From: Escherichia coli
Lineage (GTDB): Bacteria > Pseudomonadota > Gammaproteobacteria > Enterobacterales > Enterobacteriaceae
Reading direction: 5' to 3' (one strand)
NCBI RefSeq assembly: GCF_044324785.1
Contig: NZ_CP172127.1
DNA length: 64,000 nt
Shown here: in pieces, positions 3 to 14,080 of the stretch
How the letters are laid out: each line of letters starts with the position of its first letter
How positions within the stretch are numbered: position 1 is the first letter of the stretch
Translations under genes and position numbers: made by a program
The notes under the pieces: model-generated
Database searches by the model: none
What the model was told of the DNA's origin: nothing
The model's input: the letters and a program-made list of their open reading frames with translations, nothing else

Positions 3-785
3 TATTCCTTAGGGCAAAAGTATACCGAGGATAAAAGCCGTCATAAAGATAATGGGCAAGCCATCTTTTGGCTGAAAAAAGCTGCCCTACAAGGCCATAC
101 TTTCGCTTCCAACGCCCTTGGCTGGATACTGGATCGTGGAGAAGACCCCAACTATAAAGAAGCGGTTGCCTGGTATCAGATAGCCGCGGAGAGCGGAATG
201 TCTTATGCGCATAATAATCTTGGGTGGATGTACAGAAATGGCAACGGAGTCGCACAAGACTATACGCTGGCATTTTTCTGGTACAAACAAGCTGCATTAC
301 AAGGCCATAGTGACGCGCAAAACAATCTGGCCGATCTTTATGAAGACGGAAAAGGCGTTGCTCAAAACGAGACACTCGCCGCATTCTGGTATTTGAAAAG
401 CGCACAGCAGGGTAATCGGCATGCCCAGTTTCAAATTGCATGGGATTATAACGCTGGCGAAGGGGTGGACCAGGACTATAAGCAAGCCATGTACTGGTAT
501 CTGAAGGCTGCCGCTCAGGAAAGCGTCGGCGCTTACGTCAACATCGGTTATATGTATAAACATGGACAAGGCGTTGAGAAAGATTATCAGACCGCCTTTG
601 AATGGTTTATGAAAGCCGCTGAATGCAATGACGCCACTGCCTGGTATAACCTGGCCATTATGTATCACTACGGAGAAGGAAGACCTGTCGATCTCCGACA
701 GGCTCTCGACCTGTATCGTAAAGTTCAGGCATCCGGTACCAGGGATGTCAGTCAAGAAATCCGTGAGATTGAAGATTTACTGTAA
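3..785 (+). CDS. ybeQ: Sel1-repeat (TPR-like) protein, 5'-truncated by the window edge
   Basis: ORF track 198..785; by hand the frame stays open back to position 3 with no stop; repeated Sel1-type motifs (A..G..AQ..LG..Y..G.GV..D...A..WY.KAA). Confidence 0.85.
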   Translation, partial: YSLGQKYTEDKSRHKDNGQAIFWLKKAALQGHTFASNALGWILDRGEDPNYKEAVAWYQIAAESGMSYAHNNLGWMYRNGNGVAQDYTLAFFWYKQAALQGHSDAQNNLADLYEDGKGVAQNETLAAFWYLKSAQQGNRHAQFQIAWDYNAGEGVDQDYKQAMYWYLKAAAQESVGAYVNIGYMYKHGQGVEKDYQTAFEWFMKAAECNDATAWYNLAIMYHYGEGRPVDLRQALDLYRKVQASGTRDVSQEIREIEDLL

Positions 786-1338: not shown

Positions 1339-1572
1339 CGTTTCATCTCCCGGGTCGTTAACTGACTATAATAATAGACGTTCTTTGTTCCTTGCTTTGC
1401 TAATACGCCCACAAACTCTGTAAATTAATGTATGAATAATCCGGGCATCATTTCAACGTCGAGTGCGCGAAAGGCTGTTTTGACGCGGACGTTTGGGCTA
1501 TGCTATGCGGATCTGAAAAACCACCTCAACGCTACATTTGTAGCCGTATTGAAAACAGGACCACTGGCTGCC

Positions 1573-4155
1573 ATGCAAGAGCAATACCGCCCGGAAGAGA
1601 TAGAATCCAAAGTACAGCTTCATTGGGATGAGAAGCGCACATTTGAAGTAACCGAAGACGAGAGCAAAGAGAAGTATTACTGCCTGTCTATGCTTCCCTA
1701 TCCTTCTGGTCGACTACACATGGGCCACGTACGTAACTACACCATTGGTGACGTGATCGCCCGCTACCAGCGTATGCTGGGCAAAAACGTCCTGCAGCCG
1801 ATCGGCTGGGACGCGTTTGGTCTGCCTGCGGAAGGCGCGGCGGTGAAAAACAACACCGCACCGGCACCGTGGACGTACGACAACATCGCGTACATGAAAA
1901 ACCAGCTCAAAATGCTGGGCTTTGGTTATGACTGGAGCCGCGAGCTGGCAACCTGTACACCGGAATACTACCGTTGGGAACAGAAATTCTTCACCGAGCT
2001 GTATAAAAAAGGCCTGGTATATAAGAAGACTTCTGCAGTCAACTGGTGCCCGAACGACCAGACCGTACTGGCGAACGAACAAGTTATCGACGGCTGCTGC
2101 TGGCGCTGCGATACCAAAGTTGAGCGTAAAGAGATCCCGCAATGGTTTATCAAAATCACTGCTTACGCTGACGAGCTGCTCAACGATCTGGATAAACTGG
2201 ATCACTGGCCAGACACCGTTAAAACCATGCAGCGTAACTGGATCGGTCGTTCCGAAGGCGTGGAAATCACCTTCAACGTTAACGACTATGACAACACGCT
2301 GACCGTTTACACTACCCGTCCGGACACCTTTATGGGTTGTACCTACCTGGCGGTAGCGGCGGGTCATCCGCTGGCGCAGAAAGCGGCGGAAAATAATCCT
2401 GAACTGGCGGCCTTTATTGACGAATGCCGTAACACCAAAGTTGCCGAAGCTGAAATGGCAACGATGGAGAAAAAAGGCGTCGATACTGGCTTTAAAGCGG
2501 TTCACCCATTAACGGGCGAAGAAATTCCCGTTTGGGCAGCAAACTTCGTATTGATGGAGTACGGCACGGGCGCAGTTATGGCGGTTCCGGGTCACGACCA
2601 GCGCGACTACGAGTTTGCCTCTAAATACGGCCTGAACATCAAACCGGTTATCCTGGCAGCTGACGGCTCTGAGCCAGATCTTTCTCAGCAAGCCCTGACT
2701 GAAAAAGGCGTTCTGTTCAACTCTGGCGAGTTCAACGGTCTTGACCATGAAGCGGCCTTCAACGCTATCGCCGATAAACTGACTGCGATGGGCGTTGGCG
2801 AGCGTAAAGTGAACTACCGCCTGCGCGACTGGGGTGTTTCCCGTCAACGTTACTGGGGCGCGCCGATTCCGATGGTGACGCTGGAAGACGGTACCGTAAT
2901 GCCGACCCCGGACGACCAGCTGCCGGTGATCCTGCCGGAAGATGTGGTGATGGACGGCATTACCAGCCCGATTAAAGCAGATCCGGAGTGGGCAAAAACT
3001 ACCGTTAACGGTATGCCAGCGCTGCGTGAAACCGACACTTTCGACACCTTTATGGAGTCCTCCTGGTACTATGCGCGCTACACTTGCCCGGAGTACAAAG
3101 AAGGTATGCTGGATTCCAAAGCGGCTAACTACTGGCTGCCGGTGGATATCTACATTGGTGGTATCGAACACGCCATTATGCACCTGCTCTACTTCCGCTT
3201 CTTCCACAAACTGATGCGTGATGCAGGCATGGTGAACTCTGACGAACCAGCGAAACAATTGCTGTGTCAGGGTATGGTGCTGGCAGATGCCTTCTACTAT
3301 GTTGGCGAAAACGGCGAACGTAACTGGGTTTCCCCGGTTGATGCTATCGTTGAACGTGACGAGAAAGGCCGTATCGTGAAAGCGAAAGATGCGGCAGGCC
3401 ATGAACTGGTTTATACCGGCATGAGCAAAATGTCCAAGTCGAAGAACAACGGTATCGACCCGCAGGTGATGGTTGAACGTTACGGCGCGGACACCGTTCG
3501 TCTGTTTATGATGTTTGCTTCTCCGGCTGATATGACTCTCGAATGGCAGGAATCCGGCGTGGAAGGGGCTAACCGCTTCCTGAAACGTGTCTGGAAACTG
3601 GTTTACGAGCACACAGCGAAAGGTGGTGTTGCGGCACTGAACGTCGATGCACTGACTGAAGATCAGAAAGCGCTGCGTCGCGATGTGCATAAAACGATCG
3701 CTAAAGTGACCGATGATATCGGCCGTCGTCAGACCTTCAACACCGCAATTGCAGCGATTATGGAGCTGATGAACAAACTGGCGAAAGCAACGACCGATGG
3801 CGAGCAGGATCGCGCCCTGATGCAGGAAGCGCTGCTGGCGGTAGTCCGTATGCTTAACCCGTTCACCCCGCACATCTGCTTCACGCTGTGGCAGGAACTG
3901 AAAGGCGAAGGCGATATCGACAACGCGCCGTGGCCGGTTGCTGACGAAAAAGCGATGGTGGAAGACTCCACGCTGGTCGTGGTGCAGGTTAACGGTAAAG
4001 TCCGTGCCAAAATCACCGTTCCGGTGGACGCAACGGAAGAACAGGTTCGCGAACGTGCTGGCCAGGAACATCTGGTAGCAAAATATCTTGATGGCGTTAC
4101 TGTACGTAAAGTGATTTACGTACCCGGTAAACTCCTCAATCTGGTCGTTGGCTAA
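1573..4155 (+). CDS. leuS: Leucine--tRNA ligase
   Basis: ORF track 1432..4155 (907 aa) trimmed to the internal ATG giving MQEQYRPEE and 860 aa; class I aaRS motifs HMGH and KMSKS present. Confidence 0.95.
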
Positions 4156-4169
4156 GCGCGGGAGGAAGC

Positions 4170-4751
4170 GTGCGATATCTGGCAACATTGTTGTTATCTC
4201 TGGCGGTGTTAATCACCGCCGGGTGTGGCTGGCATCTGCGTGATACCACGCAGGTTCCTTCCACTATGAAGGTCATGATCCTGGACTCAGGCGATCCGAA
4301 CGGGCCATTAAGCCGTGCGGTGCGTAACCAGTTACGTCTGAATGGTGTCGAGTTGCTTGATAAAGAAACCACGCGTAAGGACGTTCCATCCCTGCGTTTG
4401 GGTAAAGTGAGCATCGCGAAAGATACCGCATCGGTATTCCGTAACGGTCAAACAGCAGAGTATCAGATGATCATGACGGTCAATGCGACCGTGTTGATCC
4501 CCGGCCGTGACATCTACCCGATTAGCGCCAAAGTCTTCCGTTCGTTCTTCGATAACCCGCAAATGGCGTTAGCGAAAGATAACGAACAAGACATGATCGT
4601 AAAAGAGATGTACGACCGTGCTGCCGAACAGCTGATTCGTAAGCTGCCAAGCATCCGTGCTGCGGATATTCGTTCCGACGAAGAACAGACGTCGACCACA
4701 ACGGATACTCCGGCAACGCCTGCACGCGTCTCTACCACGCTGGGTAACTGA
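4170..4751 (+). CDS. lptE: LPS assembly lipoprotein LptE (RlpB)
   Basis: 193 aa; lipobox LITAGC near the N-terminus; GTG start; immediately downstream of leuS. Confidence 0.92.
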
Positions 4752-5782
4752 TGATTCGGTTGTACCCGGAACAACTTCGCGCGCAGCTCAATGAAGGGCT
4801 GCGCGCGGCGTATCTTTTACTTGGTAACGATCCTCTGTTATTGCAGGAAAGCCAGGACGCTATTCGTCAGGTAGCTGCGGTACAAGGATTCGAAGAACAC
4901 CACACTTTTTCCATTGATCCCAACACTGACTGGAATGCGATCTTTTCGTTATGCCAGGCCATGAGTCTGTTTGCCAGTCGACAAACGCTATTGCTGTTGT
5001 TACCAGAAAACGGACCGAATGCGGCGATCAATGAACAACTTCTCACACTCACCGGACTTCTGCATGACGACCTGCTGTTGATCGTCCGCGGTAATAAATT
5101 AAGCAAAGCGCAAGAAAATGCTGCCTGGTTTACTGCTCTTGCGAATCGCAGCGTGCAGGTGACCTGTCAGACGCCGGAGCAGGCTCAGCTTCCCCGCTGG
5201 GTTGCTGCGCGTGCAAAACAGCTCAACTTAGAACTGGATGACGCGGCAAACCAAGTGCTCTGCTACTGTTATGAAGGTAACCTGCTGGCGCTGGCCCAGG
5301 CACTGGAGCGTTTATCGCTACTCTGGCCAGACGGCAAACTGACATTACCTCGCGTTGAACAGGCGGTGAATGATGCCGCGCATTTCACCCCTTTTCATTG
5401 GGTTGATGCTTTGTTGATGGGAAAAAGTAAGCGCGCGTTGCATATTCTTCAGCAACTGCGTCTGGAAGGCAGCGAACCGGTTATTTTGTTGCGCACATTA
5501 CAACGTGAACTGTTGTTACTGGTTAACCTGAAACGCCAGTCTGCCCATACGCCACTGCGTGCGTTGTTTGATAAGCATCGGGTATGGCAGAACCGCCGGG
5601 GCATGATGGGCGAGGCGTTAAATCGCTTAAGCCAGCCGCAGTTACGTCAGGCCGTGCAACTCCTGACACGAACGGAACTCACCCTCAAACAAGATTACGG
5701 TCAGTCAGTGTGGGCAGAGCTGGAAGGGTTATCTCTTCTGTTGTGCCATAAACCCCTGGCGGACGTATTTATCGACGGTTGA
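4751..5782 (+). CDS. holA: DNA polymerase III delta subunit
   Basis: 343 aa; start overlaps lptE stop by 1 nt (TGATG); conserved leuS-lptE-holA order. Confidence 0.92.
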
Positions 5783-5783
5783 T

Positions 5784-6425
5784 ATGAAATCTTTACAGGC
5801 TCTGTTTGGTGGCACCTTTGATCCGGTGCACTATGGTCATCTTAAACCTGTGGAAACGCTGGCGAATTTGATTGGTCTGACGCGGGTCACAATCATCCCT
5901 AATAATGTTCCTCCGCATCGTCCCCAGCCGGAAGCGAACAGCGTACAGCGTAAACACATGCTTGAACTGGCGATTGCCGACAAGCCATTATTTACTCTTG
6001 ATGAACGCGAGCTAAAGCGCAATGCCCCCTCTTACACTGCGCAAACACTGAAAGAGTGGCGGCAGGAACAAGGGTCGGACGTGCCGCTGGCGTTTATTAT
6101 TGGTCAGGATTCACTGCTGACCTTTCCGACCTGGTACGAATACGAAACGATACTCGACAATGCACATTTGATCGTCTGTCGGCGTCCAGGTTACCCACTT
6201 GAAATGGCGCAACCGCAATACCAGCAATGGCTGGAAGATCATTTGACACATAACCCAGAAGATCTTCACCTTCAGCCTGCCGGTAAAATTTATCTGGCTG
6301 AAACGCCGTGGTTTAACATCTCGGCGACCATCATCCGCGAACGTTTGCAAAACGGTGAATCGTGTGAGGATTTATTGCCGGAACCGGTACTGACTTACAT
6401 TAACCAACAAGGCTTGTATCGCTGA
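5784..6425 (+). CDS. nadD: Nicotinate-nucleotide adenylyltransferase
   Basis: 213 aa; nucleotidyltransferase motif [11 protein letters not shown]. Confidence 0.93.
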
Positions 6426-6448
6426 TACCTGTCGTTACGGAGGGCATG

Positions 6449-7060
6449 ATGCGACTGTGGTTAATTCGTCATGGTGAAACGCTAGCGAATATCGATGGTC
6501 TGTACAGCGGTCATGCTCCCACACCCCTGACTGCGCGCGGTATTGAGCAAGCGCAAAATCTGCATACGCTGCTACATGGTGTTTCCTTTGACCTGGTTTT
6601 ATGCAGTGAACTGGAACGGGCACAGCATACCGCGCGACTGGTTCTCAGTGATCGCCAGCTCCCCGTGCAAATAATCCCTGAACTCAACGAAATGTTTTTT
6701 GGCGACTGGGAGATGCGACATCATCGCGACCTCATGCAAGAAGATGCCGAAAACTATAGCGCGTGGTGCAATGACTGGCAGCATGCAATCCCCACGAACG
6801 GTGAAGGATTTCAGGCATTTTCGCAACGTGTGGAACGCTTTATCGCAAGGCTTAGTGAATTTCAGCACTATCAGAATATTTTAGTCGTCAGCCATCAGGG
6901 TGTACTGAGTCTGTTAATCGCCCGTTTAATTGGCATGCCTGCCGAGGCTATGTGGCATTTTCGCGTTGACCAGGGGTGTTGGAGCGCCATTGATATCAAC
7001 CAAAAATTCGCGACGCTACGCGTCCTCAATAGCCGTGCCATCGGGGTCGAGAATGCATGA
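6449..7060 (+). CDS. cobC: Alpha-ribazole phosphatase / histidine phosphatase family
   Basis: ORF 6446..7060; RHGET catalytic motif; start trimmed one codon to MRLWLIRHGET (203 aa), either ATG is possible. Confidence 0.88.
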   Translation: MRLWLIRHGETLANIDGLYSGHAPTPLTARGIEQAQNLHTLLHGVSFDLVLCSELERAQHTARLVLSDRQLPVQIIPELNEMFFGDWEMRHHRDLMQEDAENYSAWCNDWQHAIPTNGEGFQAFSQRVERFIARLSEFQHYQNILVVSHQGVLSLLIARLIGMPAEAMWHFRVDQGCWSAIDINQKFATLRVLNSRAIGVENA

Positions 7061-7301
7061 CTTTTCTGTTTTTTTACGGGTAAGCCGCAACGACCATTGA
7101 CAGCCCCGGGCAGGCTGATATTCTCCGCAGCCAGACTTTTTTCGCCAGACACGACTTTGTAGAAATTGTTTTACAAAAATGGCGATGCAATCTGCGGCGC
7201 GGGGTGGGATGATAGCCCACTTTCGAAAGCCGATTCGGCGACAATTGTCCCGAAATCGCCTCTGGTTCAGGTATACTGACAGACCATTTTTATCTATTTG
7301 A

Positions 7302-7637
<336 letters not shown>

Positions 7638-7640
7638 TGC

Positions 7641-8108
7641 GTGAAGCTGCAACTTGTCGCCGTGGGAACGAAAATGCCGGACTGGGTACAAACCGGTTTT
7701 ACCGAGTACCTGCGTCGTTTTCCGAAAGATATGCCCTTCGAGCTGATTGAAATTCCGGCCGGAAAACGCGGCAAGAATGCGGACATCAAGCGCATACTCG
7801 ACAAAGAGGGTGAGCAGATGTTGGCGGCCGCAGGCAAAAACCGCATTGTCACCCTCGATATTCCAGGCAAGCCCTGGGATACGCCGCAGTTAGCCGCTGA
7901 GCTGGAACGCTGGAAGCTGGATGGTCGCGACGTCAGTCTACTGATTGGCGGGCCTGAAGGGTTGTCGCCTGCCTGTAAAGCGGCGGCGGAGCAGAGCTGG
8001 TCGCTGTCGGCGCTTACCCTTCCCCATCCGCTGGTTCGCGTGCTGGTCGCAGAGAGTCTGTACCGGGCGTGGAGCATCACCACCAACCATCCTTATCACC
8101 GTGAGTGA
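7641..8108 (+). CDS. rlmH: 23S rRNA (pseudouridine1915-N3)-methyltransferase RlmH, SPOUT family
   Basis: 155 aa; GTG start 4 nt after rsfS stop. Confidence 0.92.
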
Positions 8109-8138
8109 TAAGGGAGCTTTGAGTAGAAAACGCAGCGG

Positions 8139-10040
8139 ATGAAACTACAGAACTCTTTTCGCGACTATACGGCAGAGTCCGCGCTGTTTGTGCGCCGGGC
8201 GCTGGTCGCCTTTTTGGGGATTTTGCTGCTGACCGGCGTGCTTATCGCCAACCTGTATAATCTGCAAATTGTTCGCTTTACCGATTACCAGACCCGCTCT
8301 AATGAAAACCGCATTAAGCTGGTGCCTATCGCGCCCAGCCGCGGCATTATCTACGACCGTAACGGTATCCCTCTGGCCCTCAACCGCACTATCTACCAGA
8401 TAGAAATGATGCCGGAGAAAGTCGATAACGTGCAGCAAACGCTGGACGCTCTGCGCAGCGTGGTTGATCTGACCGATGACGATATTGCTGCATTCCGAAA
8501 AGAGCGTGCACGCTCACACCGTTTCACCTCCATTCCGGTGAAAACTAACCTGACCGAAGTACAAGTGGCGCGCTTTGCCGTCAATCAGTACCGTTTTCCG
8601 GGTGTCGAAGTTAAAGGCTATAAACGTCGTTACTATCCTTACGGTTCGGCGTTGACCCACGTCATCGGCTATGTGTCGAAAATCAACGATAAAGACGTCG
8701 AACGCCTGAATAATGACGGCAAACTGGCCAACTATGCAGCAACGCATGATATCGGTAAGCTGGGCATTGAGCGTTACTATGAAGATGTGCTGCACGGTCA
8801 GACCGGTTATGAAGAGGTTGAAGTTAACAACCGTGGGCGTGTTATTCGCCAGTTAAAAGAAGTACCACCGCAAGCCGGACACGATATTTACCTGACGCTG
8901 GATCTCAAACTCCAGCAATATATTGAAACGCTGCTGGCGGGTAGCCGCGCAGCGGTGGTAGTCACCGATCCGCGTACAGGTGGGGTGCTGGCGCTGGTTT
9001 CCACGCCTAGTTATGACCCAAACCTGTTTGTTGACGGTATCTCCAGCAAAGATTATTCCGCCTTGCTGAACGACCCGAATACACCGCTGGTGAACCGCGC
9101 CACACAGGGGGTTTATCCTCCCGCGTCTACAGTTAAACCCTATGTGGCGGTTTCGGCATTGAGCGCCGGAGTGATCACGCGCAATACGACGCTGTTTGAC
9201 CCAGGCTGGTGGCAACTGCCAGGTTCGGAAAAACGTTATCGTGACTGGAAAAAATGGGGCCACGGGCGTCTGAATGTCACAAGATCGCTGGAAGAATCTG
9301 CGGATACCTTCTTCTATCAGGTGGCCTACGATATGGGGATCGATCGCCTCTCCGAATGGATGGGTAAATTCGGTTATGGTCATTACACCGGTATCGACCT
9401 GGCGGAAGAACGTTCCGGCAACATGCCTACCCGCGAATGGAAACAGAAACGCTTTAAAAAACCGTGGTATCAGGGTGACACCATTCCGGTTGGTATCGGT
9501 CAGGGTTACTGGACAGCGACCCCAATCCAGATGAGTAAGGCACTGATGATCCTGATTAATGACGGTATCGTGAAGGTTCCGCATTTGCTGATGAGCACCG
9601 CCGAAGACGGCAAACAGGTGCCATGGGTACAGCCGCATGAACCGCCCGTCGGCGATATTCATTCCGGTTACTGGGAGCTGGCGAAAGACGGTATGTACGG
9701 TGTTGCTAACCGCCCTAACGGTACAGCGCATAAATACTTTGCCAGCGCACCGTACAAAATTGCGGCGAAATCTGGTACCGCTCAGGTCTTCGGTCTGAAA
9801 GCGAACGAAACCTATAATGCGCACAAAATTGCCGAGCGTTTACGTGACCACAAACTGATGACTGCCTTTGCGCCATACAACAATCCGCAAGTGGCTGTCG
9901 CCATGATTCTGGAGAACGGTGGCGCGGGTCCAGCGGTTGGTACGCTGATGCGCCAGATCCTCGACCACATTATGCTGGGTGATAACAACACCGATCTGCC
10001 TGCGGAAAATCCAGCGGTTGCCGCAGCGGAGGACCATTAA
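8139..10040 (+). CDS. mrdA: Penicillin-binding protein 2 (elongasome transpeptidase)
   Basis: 633 aa; N-terminal TM segment; transpeptidase motifs STVK and KSGTA. Confidence 0.95.
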
Positions 10041-10042
10041 TC

Positions 10043-11155
10043 ATGACGGATAATCCGAATAAAAAAACATTCTGGGATAAAGTCCATCTCGATCCCACAA
10101 TGCTGCTGATCTTACTGGCATTGCTGGTTTACAGCGCCCTGGTTATCTGGAGCGCCAGCGGTCAGGATATTGGCATGATGGAGCGTAAAATCGGCCAAAT
10201 CGCGATGGGTCTGGTCATCATGGTGGTGATGGCGCAAATTCCTCCACGCGTTTATGAAGGCTGGGCCCCCTATCTCTATATCATCTGTATTATTTTGCTG
10301 GTGGCGGTAGATGCTTTTGGTGCCATCTCTAAAGGCGCTCAACGCTGGCTGGATCTCGGTATCGTTCGTTTTCAGCCGTCGGAAATTGCCAAAATAGCCG
10401 TACCACTGATGGTAGCGCGCTTTATCAACCGCGACGTTTGCCCGCCGTCGTTGAAGAACACAGGCATCGCGCTGGTACTGATATTTATGCCCACGCTGCT
10501 GGTGGCTGCGCAGCCTGACCTGGGGACATCAATCCTCGTTGCGCTTTCCGGTCTGTTTGTACTGTTCCTCTCTGGCCTTAGCTGGCGTCTGATTGGCGTC
10601 GCAGTAGTGCTGGTGGCGGCGTTCATTCCTATTCTGTGGTTCTTCCTGATGCATGATTACCAGCGCCAGCGCGTAATGATGCTCCTGGACCCGGAATCAG
10701 ACCCACTCGGCGCGGGCTATCATATTATTCAGTCTAAAATTGCTATTGGCTCCGGTGGATTACGCGGCAAAGGCTGGCTGCACGGTACTCAGTCACAGCT
10801 TGAATTTCTCCCCGAACGCCATACCGACTTTATCTTCGCGGTACTGGCGGAAGAGCTGGGATTAGTGGGCATTTTGATTCTGCTCGCTCTCTACATTCTG
10901 CTGATCATGCGCGGGCTGTGGATAGCCGCCAGAGCGCAAACCACCTTTGGTCGCGTCATGGCTGGCGGCTTAATGCTGATATTATTCGTTTATGTCTTCG
11001 TAAATATTGGTATGGTAAGCGGTATTCTGCCGGTTGTAGGGGTTCCGCTCCCACTGGTCAGTTATGGAGGATCGGCGCTAATTGTGCTGATGGCTGGGTT
11101 CGGGATTGTAATGTCAATCCACACCCACAGGAAAATGTTGTCGAAAAGCGTGTAA
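10043..11155 (+). CDS. mrdB: Peptidoglycan glycosyltransferase RodA (SEDS family)
   Basis: 370 aa polytopic membrane protein immediately after mrdA. Confidence 0.95.
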
Positions 11156-11165
11156 GAGGTGCGCA

Positions 11166-12254
11166 ATGCGTAAGCAGTGGCTCGGGATCTGCATCGCGGC
11201 AGGAATGCTCGCGGCATGTACAAGCGATGATGGTCAGCAACAGACGGTAAGTGTACCGCAGCCTGCGGTATGTAACGGCCCCATAGTTGAAATTAGCGGG
11301 GCGGACCCGCGTTTCGAACCACTGAACGCGACGGCAAATCAGGATTACCAGCGCGACGGTAAAAGCTACAAAATCGTGCAGGATCCGTCTCGATTTAGCC
11401 AGGCGGGACTGGCGGCAATCTATGATGCCGAACCCGGCAGTAACCTGACGGCCTCTGGCGAAGCATTCGATCCGACACAGCTGACAGCGGCCCATCCAAC
11501 GCTTCCGATCCCCAGCTACGCCAGAATCACTAACCTGGCTAACGGACGAATGATCGTGGTGCGCATTAATGATCGCGGTCCTTACGGCAACGACCGCGTT
11601 ATTTCGCTTTCTCGCGCGGCAGCTGACCGTCTTAACACGTCAAACAACACCAAAGTTCGTATCGATCCGATTATTGTCGCCCAGGATGGTTCGCTTTCTG
11701 GTCCTGGTATGGCCTGTACCACAGTTGCCAAACAGACTTACGCCCTGCCTGCACCTCCCGATTTAAGCGGTGGCGCGGGAACAAGTTCAGTGTCTGGCCC
11801 GCAGGGTGACATTCTTCCGGTCAGTAATTCGACGCTAAAAAGCGAAGATCCGACCGGCGCGCCGGTAACCAGCAGCGGTTTCCTCGGTGCACCAACGACG
11901 TTAGCGCCTGGTGTGCTGGAAGGCAGCGAACCAACACCTGCGCCACAGCCCGTTGTTACAGCCCCCTCGACAACGCCTGCAACCTCGCCTGCAATGGTGA
12001 CACCGCAAGCCGCCTCACAAAGCGCCAGCGGCAACTTTATGGTGCAAGTCGGGGCCGTTAGCGATCAGGCTCGTGCGCAACAGTACCAACAGCAACTGGG
12101 ACAGAAGTTCGGCGTCCCCGGTCGCGTAACTCAAAATGGCGCAGTCTGGCGGATCCAGCTTGGCCCATTCGCCAGCAAAGCCGAAGCCAGTACCTTGCAG
12201 CAACGTTTGCAAACCGAAGCCCAATTACAGTCATTTATTACCACCGCGCAGTAG
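11166..12254 (+). CDS. rlpA: Septal ring lytic transglycosylase RlpA (lipoprotein, SPOR domain)
   Basis: 362 aa; lipobox LAAC; Pro/Thr/Ser-rich linker; C-terminal SPOR-like region. Confidence 0.93.
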   Translation: MRKQWLGICIAAGMLAACTSDDGQQQTVSVPQPAVCNGPIVEISGADPRFEPLNATANQDYQRDGKSYKIVQDPSRFSQAGLAAIYDAEPGSNLTASGEAFDPTQLTAAHPTLPIPSYARITNLANGRMIVVRINDRGPYGNDRVISLSRAAADRLNTSNNTKVRIDPIIVAQDGSLSGPGMACTTVAKQTYALPAPPDLSGGAGTSSVSGPQGDILPVSNSTLKSEDPTGAPVTSSGFLGAPTTLAPGVLEGSEPTPAPQPVVTAPSTTPATSPAMVTPQAASQSASGNFMVQVGAVSDQARAQQYQQQLGQKFGVPGRVTQNGAVWRIQLGPFASKAEASTLQQRLQTEAQLQSFITTAQ

Positions 12255-12393
12255 CGTAAAGCAGGCATCTGATGTGTCAATTTCTGTAAATGACGTTAAC
12301 AAAGTCACGCGGAAAGTCAGATGCCTGCCGGTAGTGCATTTGCTATAGTAGGGCACTTTTTTTAATTCCATCACGGATGTCGTAGTTCAGACC

Positions 12394-13605
12394 ATGAATA
12401 CCATTTTTTCCGCTCGTATCATGAAGCGCCTGGCGCTCACCACGGCTCTTTGCACAGCCTTTATCTCTGCTGCACATGCCGATGACCTGAATATCAAAAC
12501 TATGATCCCGGGTGTACCGCAGATCGATGCGGAGTCCTACATCCTGATTGACTATAACTCCGGCAAAGTGCTCGCCGAACAGAACGCAGATGTCCGCCGC
12601 GATCCTGCCAGCCTGACCAAAATGATGACCAGTTACGTTATCGGCCAGGCAATGAAAGCCGGTAAATTTAAAGAAACTGATTTAGTCACCATCGGCAACG
12701 ACGCATGGGCCACCGGTAATCCGGTATTTAAAGGTTCTTCGCTGATGTTCCTCAAACCGGGCATGCAGGTTCCGGTTTCTCAGCTGATCCGCGGTATTAA
12801 CCTGCAATCGGGTAACGATGCTTGCGTCGCCATGGCCGATTTTGCCGCTGGTAGCCAGGACGCTTTTGTTGGCTTGATGAACAGCTACGTTAACGCCCTG
12901 GGCCTGAAAAATACCCACTTCCAGACGGTACATGGTCTGGATGCTGATGGTCAGTACAGCTCCGCGCGAGATATGGCGCTGATCGGCCAGGCGTTGATCC
13001 GTGACGTACCGAATGAATACTCGATCTATAAAGAAAAAGAATTTACGTTTAACGGTATTCGCCAGCTGAACCGTAACGGTCTGTTATGGGATAACAGCCT
13101 GAATGTCGACGGCATCAAAACCGGACACACTGACAAAGCAGGTTACAACCTTGTTGCTTCTGCGACTGAAGGCCAGATGCGCTTGATCTCTGCGGTGATG
13201 GGCGGACGTACTTTTAAAGGCCGTGAAGCCGAAAGTAAAAAACTGCTGACCTGGGGCTTCCGTTTCTTCGAAACCGTTAACCCACTGAAAGTAGGTAAAG
13301 AGTTCGCCTCTGAACCGGTTTGGTTTGGTGATTCTGATCGCGCTTCGTTAGGTGTTGATAAAGACGTGTATCTGACCATTCCGCGTGGCCGCATGAAAGA
13401 TCTGAAAGCCAGCTATGTGCTGAACAGCAGTGAATTGCATGCGCCGCTGCAAAAGAATCAGGTCGTCGGTACTATCAACTTCCAGCTTGATGGCAAAACG
13501 ATCGAACAACGCCCGCTGGTTGTGCTGCAAGAAATCCCGGAAGGCAACTTCTTCGGCAAAATCATTGATTACATTAAATTAATGTTCCATCACTGGTTTG
13601 GTTAA
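12394..13605 (+). CDS. dacA: D-alanyl-D-alanine carboxypeptidase PBP5
   Basis: 403 aa; signal peptide; SLTK, SGN and KTGHT active-site motifs. Confidence 0.95.
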
Positions 13606-13654
13606 AAATCGAACACTTGAAAGTGTAATTTCCGTCCCCATATACTAAGCATCA

Positions 13655-13695
13655 GTAAAAAACTCCCGCCTTCTGGCGGGAGTTGCTATTTAATT
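13655..13695 (+). terminator. Intrinsic terminator downstream of dacA
   Basis: GC stem ACTCCCGCC/GGCGGGAGT with a 5-nt loop, then a T-rich tail. Confidence 0.6.
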
Positions 13696-13714
13696 ACGTT
13701 ACGCCGGAGCTGAC

Positions 13715-13978
13715 ATGAAAACCAAACTTAACGAACTGCTTGAATTCCCTACTCCTTTTACTTACAAAGTTATGGGGCAGGCGTTACCTGAGCTGGTTGA
13801 TCAGGTGGTTGAAGTGGTACAGCGCCATGCGCCAGGTGACTACACCCCAACGGTAAAACCAAGCAGCAAAGGCAACTACCACTCGGTATCTATCACTATC
13901 AACGCCACTCATATCGAGCAGGTTGAAACACTGTATGAAGAACTGGGTAAAATCGATATTGTCCGCATGGTTCTGTAA
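13715..13978 (+). CDS. ybeD: UPF0250/DUF493 protein YbeD
   Basis: 87 aa; conserved position between dacA and lipB. Confidence 0.9.
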
Positions 13979-14080
13979 CTCGCTTCTCCGTTACCCGGCT
14001 CCTGGTCGGGTAACTCCCCTCTCCTCGCTGTGATATACTTTTCCCCCCCACTTTTACTCATTCTCCACGGAGATGCCGTT

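Follow-up and report, generated by a model that had tools for sequence, protein, structure and literature searches.

Positions 3-785 of the window (the whole 64,000-nucleotide stretch of Escherichia coli DNA analysed here) hold a single uninterrupted frame on the + strand, which extends for 260 codons and closes with a TAA stop at 783-785; the remaining two forward frames of the same region are interrupted by many stops. Because the frame runs off the start of the window, the program-made list of open reading frames shows just the portion from an internal ATG (198-785). Two opposite-strand ORFs inside the region (297-755 and 87-290) gave no match in a Pfam search, and an Rfam scan of positions 1-1600 returned zero RNA families.

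The original prediction took this frame for ybeQ, with the C-terminal ~260 residues in view, and comparison with complete genomes bears out both points. Positions 1-1400 were compared by megablast to 5426 complete E. coli genomes, 5424 of which matched; the features annotated under the match are 'ybeQ: Sel1 family TPR-like repeat protein YbeQ' and 'ybeL: zinc ribbon-containing protein'. The closest genome, that of strain N3, is 99.7% identical at the nucleotide level over the 785 nt of the ybeQ part; other E. coli are mostly ~97% identical to the fragment, and the overall range is 96-99.7%. In N3, ybeQ is 978 nt long and encodes 325 amino acids, and base 3 of the window is the first base of its codon 66. 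The visible part thus comprises codons 66-325 and the stop (the 3' 80% of the gene), with codons 1-65 and the promoter lying before the window start. The gene is cut short by the edge of the window, and the truncation has no biological meaning.

Orthology is evident on two counts. The fragment is collinear with annotated ybeQ and close to identical to it: 3866 genomes contain 80% or more of its length, almost all with 95-99% identity. The position agrees as well: the gene is convergent with ybeL, after which leuS, lptE, holA and nadD come in the N3 order. E. coli K-12 ybeQ (b0644, NCBI 'Sel1 family TPR-like repeat protein YbeQ') is this same gene; the length register is unchanged, and ybeL and leuS are its neighbours there too. 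We conclude with high confidence that 3-785 is the 3' part of ybeQ. The product, of which residues 66-325 are encoded here, is an all-alpha Sel1-like-repeat (SLR) solenoid of 325 aa, probably cytoplasmic, and the gene is non-essential.

The allele is close to that of N3, from which it differs at 2 of 783 nt and at one amino acid (Q135H). Codon 135 (210-212) is CAT, specifying His; the residue is Gln in N3, Citrobacter and Salmonella, is invariant in the four full-length orthologues aligned, and forms the canonical 'AQ' start of repeat 4. Compared to the K-12 (DH10B) allele, the visible part carries 13 nonsynonymous and 11 synonymous changes, and its stop is TAA rather than TAG. In DH10B the ybeQ/ybeL segment is present twice, and two further matches to this segment fall on plasmid-labelled records. 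The gene is already annotated, and nothing in the visible sequence is unusual except the single Q135H substitution.

Downstream, on the - strand and convergent with ybeQ, lies ybeL (856-1338), which encodes a DUF1451 zinc-ribbon protein of 160 aa (NF008261, E=4.7e-90) that is itself also uncharacterised. The two genes are separated by a G+C-rich hairpin (799-822), scored as a terminator-like site in a pattern scan, which folds on both strands and has the better T-run on the ybeL side. The hairpin may serve as a shared bidirectional terminator of ybeQ and ybeL; with a folding z of just -1.7 to -1.8, this reading is suggestive only. Over positions 1400-14000 the identity to the best-matching E. 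coli genomes is 99.2%, which marks the source as E. coli or something very near to it. The program's leuS ORF (1432-4155, + strand, 907 aa) is longer by 47 codons at its 5' end than the annotated LeuS of 860 aa, whose start, counted back from the stop that both share, lies near 1573; the extension is an artefact of ORF calling and not a longer protein.

The protein is a repeat solenoid. The HMM search proposed with the original prediction, Pfam Sel1 (PF08238) against the 260-aa product, gave 180.7 bits, well above the cut-off of 30.7 (E=1.8e-54), and resolved six separately significant stretches; the full-length N3 orthologue scored 207.2 bits in seven stretches. Matches to NCBIfam models were sub-threshold and at the level of the repeat alone, to the other Sel1 proteins MerG, MotX, ExoR and AlgK. 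AlphaFold, given a five-sequence alignment, was used to model the N3 protein over its full length; N3 and the window part differ at one residue. The model has a mean pLDDT of 93.8, a pTM of 0.82 and 18 helices: an N-terminal cap helix (13-21), eight helix-turn-helix pairs within residues 25-309, and a C-terminal helix (315-324). Both hallmarks of the SLR family, which Pfam places in the TPR clan, are present, namely several tandem PF08238 matches above the curated cut-off and, on the N3 model, units of 34-37 residues folded as helix-turn-helix pairs and stacked into a superhelix.

Repeats 2-8 and the C-terminal helix are visible in the window, all on the + strand, with boundaries set by the AlphaFold helices and sequence register. 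Repeat 2 (3-104) is cut by the window and lacks its first two residues, so that residues 66-99 of 64-99 remain (helices 62-71 and 82-94). Repeat 3 (105-206; residues 100-133, helices 100-110 and 116-128) is a short variant of 34 aa without the G-x-G-V turn. Repeat 4 (207-314; residues 134-169, helices 132-144 and 152-164) bears Q135H and corresponds to the strongest Pfam stretch, residues 67-102 of the fragment, which spans positions 1-36 of the 36-position model. It is followed by repeat 5 (315-422; residues 170-205, helices 168-180 and 188-200, placed also by alignment), repeat 6 (423-530; residues 206-241, helices 204-216 and 224-235), repeat 7 (531-638; residues 242-277, helices 240-252 and 260-271) and repeat 8 (639-746; residues 278-313, helices 276-288 and 296-309). 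The solenoid closes with a capping helix (747-782; residues 314-325, VSQEIREIEDLL, helix 315-324, placed also by alignment), whose V314, I318, E322 and L325 are fully conserved in the orthologues from Citrobacter and Salmonella. The Pfam count falls one short of the structural one, both in the fragment (6 against 7) and in the full protein (7 against 8), probably because repeat 3 is only 34 residues long. The six or seven repeats first proposed correspond to these two counts: six by Pfam, seven by sequence register and the AlphaFold model.

A Foldseek search with the N3 model returned LceB (8sxq) and EsiB (4bwr) at TM 0.83-0.88, in agreement with a phmmer search of the PDB (E=5.7e-72 to 6ok3). 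Over the wider set of solved SLR proteins, comprising EsiB/c5321 (4bwr), LceB (8sxq), two Oxalobacter structures (6ok3 and 6onw), LpnE (6deh) and HcpC (1ouv), the fold is shared at TM 0.69-0.88 and 26-36% identity, a likeness at the level of the repeat and not orthology. EsiB, HcpC and the Legionella SLR proteins are exported proteins or effectors. Sel1 proteins are well established as mediators of protein-protein interaction, and the original prediction mentioned host interaction as one possible role.

These nearest structures (EsiB/c5321, LceB, LpnE and HcpC) lend some colour to the idea that YbeQ is an exported host-interaction factor, mimicking eukaryotic SEL1L and targeting host ERAD after the manner of the secreted SLR proteins of pathogens; an interolog-based in-silico study did predict interactions between YbeQ and human ERAD (PMC5395655), a prediction that is computational alone. 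We consider this highly improbable. The N-terminus of N3 YbeQ (MIFTSSCCDNLSIDEIIERAEKGD) has no hydrophobic signal core, as judged by eye and from the AlphaFold model, and residues 13-21 form the cap helix of the fold. The N-termini of the Citrobacter and Salmonella orthologues likewise have no such core. In all three, then, the N-terminal signal of the exported virulence-type SLR proteins (Hcp, EsiB, LpnE) is missing; YbeQ also lacks the cysteine pairs that form disulfides in Hcp-type proteins. Moreover, ybeQ is kept in laboratory K-12 and in commensals, yet lost or broken in the pathogen genomes examined (ST131, one O157:H7 genome and a Shigella sonnei lineage). Since its N-terminus has no signal core and belongs to the solenoid fold itself, YbeQ is most likely cytoplasmic, and the host-interaction option is not favored.

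The genes upstream of ybeQ lie outside the window and were studied in reference genomes. Along the N3 chromosome they run gltL, rihA, hscC, <djlC, <ybeU, ybeT>, <djlB, <ybeR, ybeQ>, <ybeL, leuS (arrowheads mark direction), which agrees with the prediction that ybeR, djlB and ybeT adjoin ybeQ beyond the window edge. ybeQ stands at the edge of an hscC-djlC-ybeU-ybeT-djlB-ybeR island, divergent from ybeR-djlB. Pfam finds Hsp70 in HscC, DUF1266 in both YbeR and YbeU, a weak J-domain in DjlB and Sel1 in YbeT; G+C content is somewhat lower in the island (0.40-0.50) than in its flanks (0.50-0.57).

The homologue search made with full-length YbeQ was dominated by generic Sel1 proteins at 30-46% identity and missed the orthologues in Citrobacter and Salmonella, which were found by way of the DUF1266 neighbour. 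YbeQ is 59-60% identical in two Citrobacter-type loci and 53% identical in Salmonella enterica subsp. salamae, and is collinear over all eight repeats. In each case the gene has kept its place, with ybeL on one side and, on the other, a DUF1266-DjlB operon transcribed away from it. One further homologue at 59% identity (P0052) proved uninformative: it lies on a contig in which the whole island is broken into small ORFs, which marks either a noisy assembly or a decayed locus. The name ybeQ also appears in a Yersinia paper and in a Rickettsia/coral paper, where it denotes an MFS transporter and an Rhs-like toxin, neither of them related to the present protein.

The island encodes a second Sel1 protein, YbeT (L001, 5949-6503), which has 184 aa and three Pfam-detected repeats. 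Like ybeQ, ybeT is transcribed divergently from a DUF1266-J-protein pair; the two proteins differ in that YbeT begins with a hydrophobic, signal-like stretch of 23 letters, resembling a signal peptide or membrane anchor, which YbeQ does not have. Their identity of 33-37% is at the level of the repeat. On these two grounds YbeT is not a duplicate of YbeQ, and the two are not equivalent modules; they probably reside in different compartments. The Salmonella and Citrobacter loci, which have a ybeQ, have no ybeT.

Within E. coli, possession of ybeQ is variable. Beside the 3866 genomes with at least 80% of the fragment, ~580 of the 5426 carry part of it and 979 give no match; the set of complete genomes is biased to clinical isolates, and these fractions are therefore descriptive only. 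The partial class includes a deletion reaching from inside djlB to window position 448 (in ST131 and others) and IS1-bounded deletions, at least two of them independent, that run from hscC through 5' ybeQ; breakpoints within ybeQ fall at window positions 382, 448 or 655. In genomes of the E. coli CE10 type (L012, 9958-10003) rihA directly abuts ybeL, the seven-gene hscC-djlC-ybeU-ybeT-djlB-ybeR-ybeQ island being cleanly gone. Point inactivation also occurs: ybeQ is full-length and annotated as a pseudogene in O157:H7 strain 3-5-1 (L014, 206-1183), with a premature stop at codon 52, and in BL21 (L015, 208-1185), with a premature stop at codon 171; it is also reported as pseudogenised in a Shigella sonnei lineage (PMC6811581). 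A 360-aa variant of YbeQ (P0001, 67 member sequences; L006, 8001-9083) is 97% identical to YbeQ over just 73% of its length; it reads past the normal stop, overlaps the opposite-strand ybeL, and is probably a frameshifted allele.

Pairwise dN/dS of ybeQ among five alleles ranges from 0.16 to 0.6 and is mostly 0.2-0.3. Constraint on ybeL is far stronger, five E. coli alleles showing no nonsynonymous differences despite a dS of ~0.1. The substitution pattern points to some purifying selection on ybeQ where the gene is intact, yet the gene is dispensable and has been lost repeatedly.

Given this history it could be asked whether ybeQ of the present genome is a non-functional remnant, its lesion hidden, as in many E. 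coli lineages, in the unseen codons 1-65 or in the promoter. A stop at codon 52, as in O157:H7, would indeed fall outside the window; 5' deletions or IS1 junctions are found in the ~580 genomes of the partial class, the gene is missing from nearly a thousand more, and its dN/dS lies clearly above that of ybeL. We regard a hidden lesion as distinctly unlikely. All 260 visible codons are intact, alignment begins at the first base of the window, which sets it apart from the deletion classes found (breaks at 382, 448 and 655), and the nearest allele, that of N3, is an intact gene of 325 codons.

In the literature that could be searched, no experiment on YbeQ itself came to light. The divergent promoter region between ybeQ and ybeR-djlB is listed as H-NS-bound (PMC3946193); N3 has, upstream of ybeQ, the promoter reported for this gene, CTGACG-17-AATAAG. 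A DUF1266 gene of E. coli 042 is derepressed more than 300-fold in an hns mutant (PMC7582179). Overexpression of SlyA raises the ybeT and ybeU-djlC transcripts (PMC5797941), and ybeQ has been named as one of the transcripts that RpoE promoters likely drive (PMC7430671).

The fold family suggests a mode of action. Like other SLR and TPR solenoids, YbeQ would have no catalytic site and would work by binding a partner protein, or several, in the groove of its superhelix. Gene context suggests, tentatively, where a partner may be sought: it may belong to the adjoining specialised Hsp70 island, which comprises HscC, the tail-anchored J-proteins DjlB and DjlC, and the DUF1266 proteins YbeR and YbeU. 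In that event YbeQ could be an adaptor, or a scaffold that presents clients, on the cytoplasmic side of the inner membrane. Within the island, DjlC stimulates HscC, and sensitivity to Cd2+ is shared by hscC mutants and djlB djlC double mutants (reviewed in PMC8215388).

Two observations argue for the link. The divergent arrangement of ybeQ and ybeR-djlB is kept in three genera, and two types of E. coli deletion remove ybeQ along with genes of the island (djlB-ybeR-5'ybeQ in the ST131 type and the whole hscC to ybeQ block in the CE10 type). Against it counts that the synteny behind it is that of one family, the Enterobacteriaceae. These same data bear on the converse possibility, to which we give appreciable if minority weight, that YbeQ is a stand-alone cytoplasmic SLR scaffold with a partner unrelated to the HscC island, its synteny having been inherited with no functional meaning. 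A role in envelope stress is one example, the ground for which is the sigma-E-type promoter that EcoCyc lists for ybeQ. Consistent with independence, ybeQ has its own divergent promoter and stands outside the ybeR-djlB operon, and it has been point-inactivated at codon 52 (O157:H7) and codon 171 (BL21) while the adjoining ybeR is still annotated as intact. Conserved layout and joint loss both speak for the island, and no result of this analysis indicates an alternative partner.

More distant loci bear on both readings. An exhaustive search with YbeR recovered full-length DUF1266 proteins at 33-40% identity, and four such loci were inspected: all encode a DUF1266 protein, a long DjlB-like J-protein and an HscC-like Hsp70, with no Sel1 gene nearby. 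The 812-915-aa J-proteins of these loci were also checked for a Rosetta-stone fusion; they contain no Sel1 repeats and match DnaJ and DUF805 alone. The absence of a Sel1 gene from these triads, which sits well with a stand-alone YbeQ, shows that the conserved core works without a YbeQ; YbeQ is at most a lineage-specific accessory. As to the J-proteins themselves (L016, 2508-4946; L017, 1104-3782; L018, 1054-3606; L019, 8005-10752), they are nearly twice the length of DjlB, and two of the four have a DUF805 membrane domain at the end in place of a simple tail anchor.

TPR co-chaperones of the Hop/CHIP/Tom70 type use a carboxylate clamp to recognise an EEVD-like acidic Hsp70 tail, a tail that HscC does not have, ending as it does in ...RRRASDYLAIEIP; Tom71 is a weak Foldseek match to the YbeQ model (TM 0.41). 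An AlphaFold prediction of a YbeQ-(GGGGS)6-YbeR fusion gave a pTM of 0.53, with the YbeR half below pLDDT 55, from a paired alignment of four sequences, and speaks neither for nor against an interaction.

An anti-phage role was considered for YbeQ and its neighbours and is not supported. A PADLOC-DB comparison gave no match above threshold for YbeQ or its island neighbours: YbeQ and YbeT each had a sub-threshold PtuA match (E=2e-4, no stretch passing), and the remaining five proteins had none at all. A TraDIS study flagged ybeT after phage challenge, a signal that a knockout could not confirm (bioRxiv 10.1101/2025.12.01.691526).

If the partner of YbeQ does lie within the Hsp70 island, the eukaryotic protein SEL1L/Hrd3 offers an analogy for how it might act. 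SEL1L/Hrd3 is an ERAD adaptor that works with Hsp70 and an E3 ligase, and YbeQ resembles it through its Sel1 repeats (E ~1e-40 to SEL1L chains). Each is an SLR scaffold that is encoded next to an Hsp70 system or works alongside one, although for YbeQ the link to HscC is purely one of synteny. It is this pairing of a Sel1 scaffold with an Hsp70 that lies behind the adaptor mechanism proposed here. The two differ in that YbeQ has neither a membrane anchor nor a luminal location, and their global superposition is poor (TM ~0.4). Extended to its most specific form, the proposal is that YbeQ is an Enterobacteriaceae-specific client adaptor for an otherwise orphan HscC-DjlB/DjlC-DUF1266 Hsp70 machine, a cytoplasmic counterpart of SEL1L/Hrd3 that would pick membrane-proximal clients of the H-NS-silenced island. 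In this full form we think it doubtful, and offer it as speculation.

The finding in the window is in itself of little consequence: a known gene, correctly recognised, is cut by the window boundary. The wider interest of ybeQ is modest and comes from its setting. It is an E. coli y-gene at the edge of a dispensable island, parts of which are reported to be H-NS-silenced. Of the three Hsp70 systems of bacteria, the one encoded there, HscC, is understood least. The whole island is missing in ~18% of complete E. coli genomes, and deletions and stops in ybeQ are recurrent: many lineages do not need the gene. Should YbeQ prove to be a true partner of the HscC system, it would provide a handle on what HscC is for.
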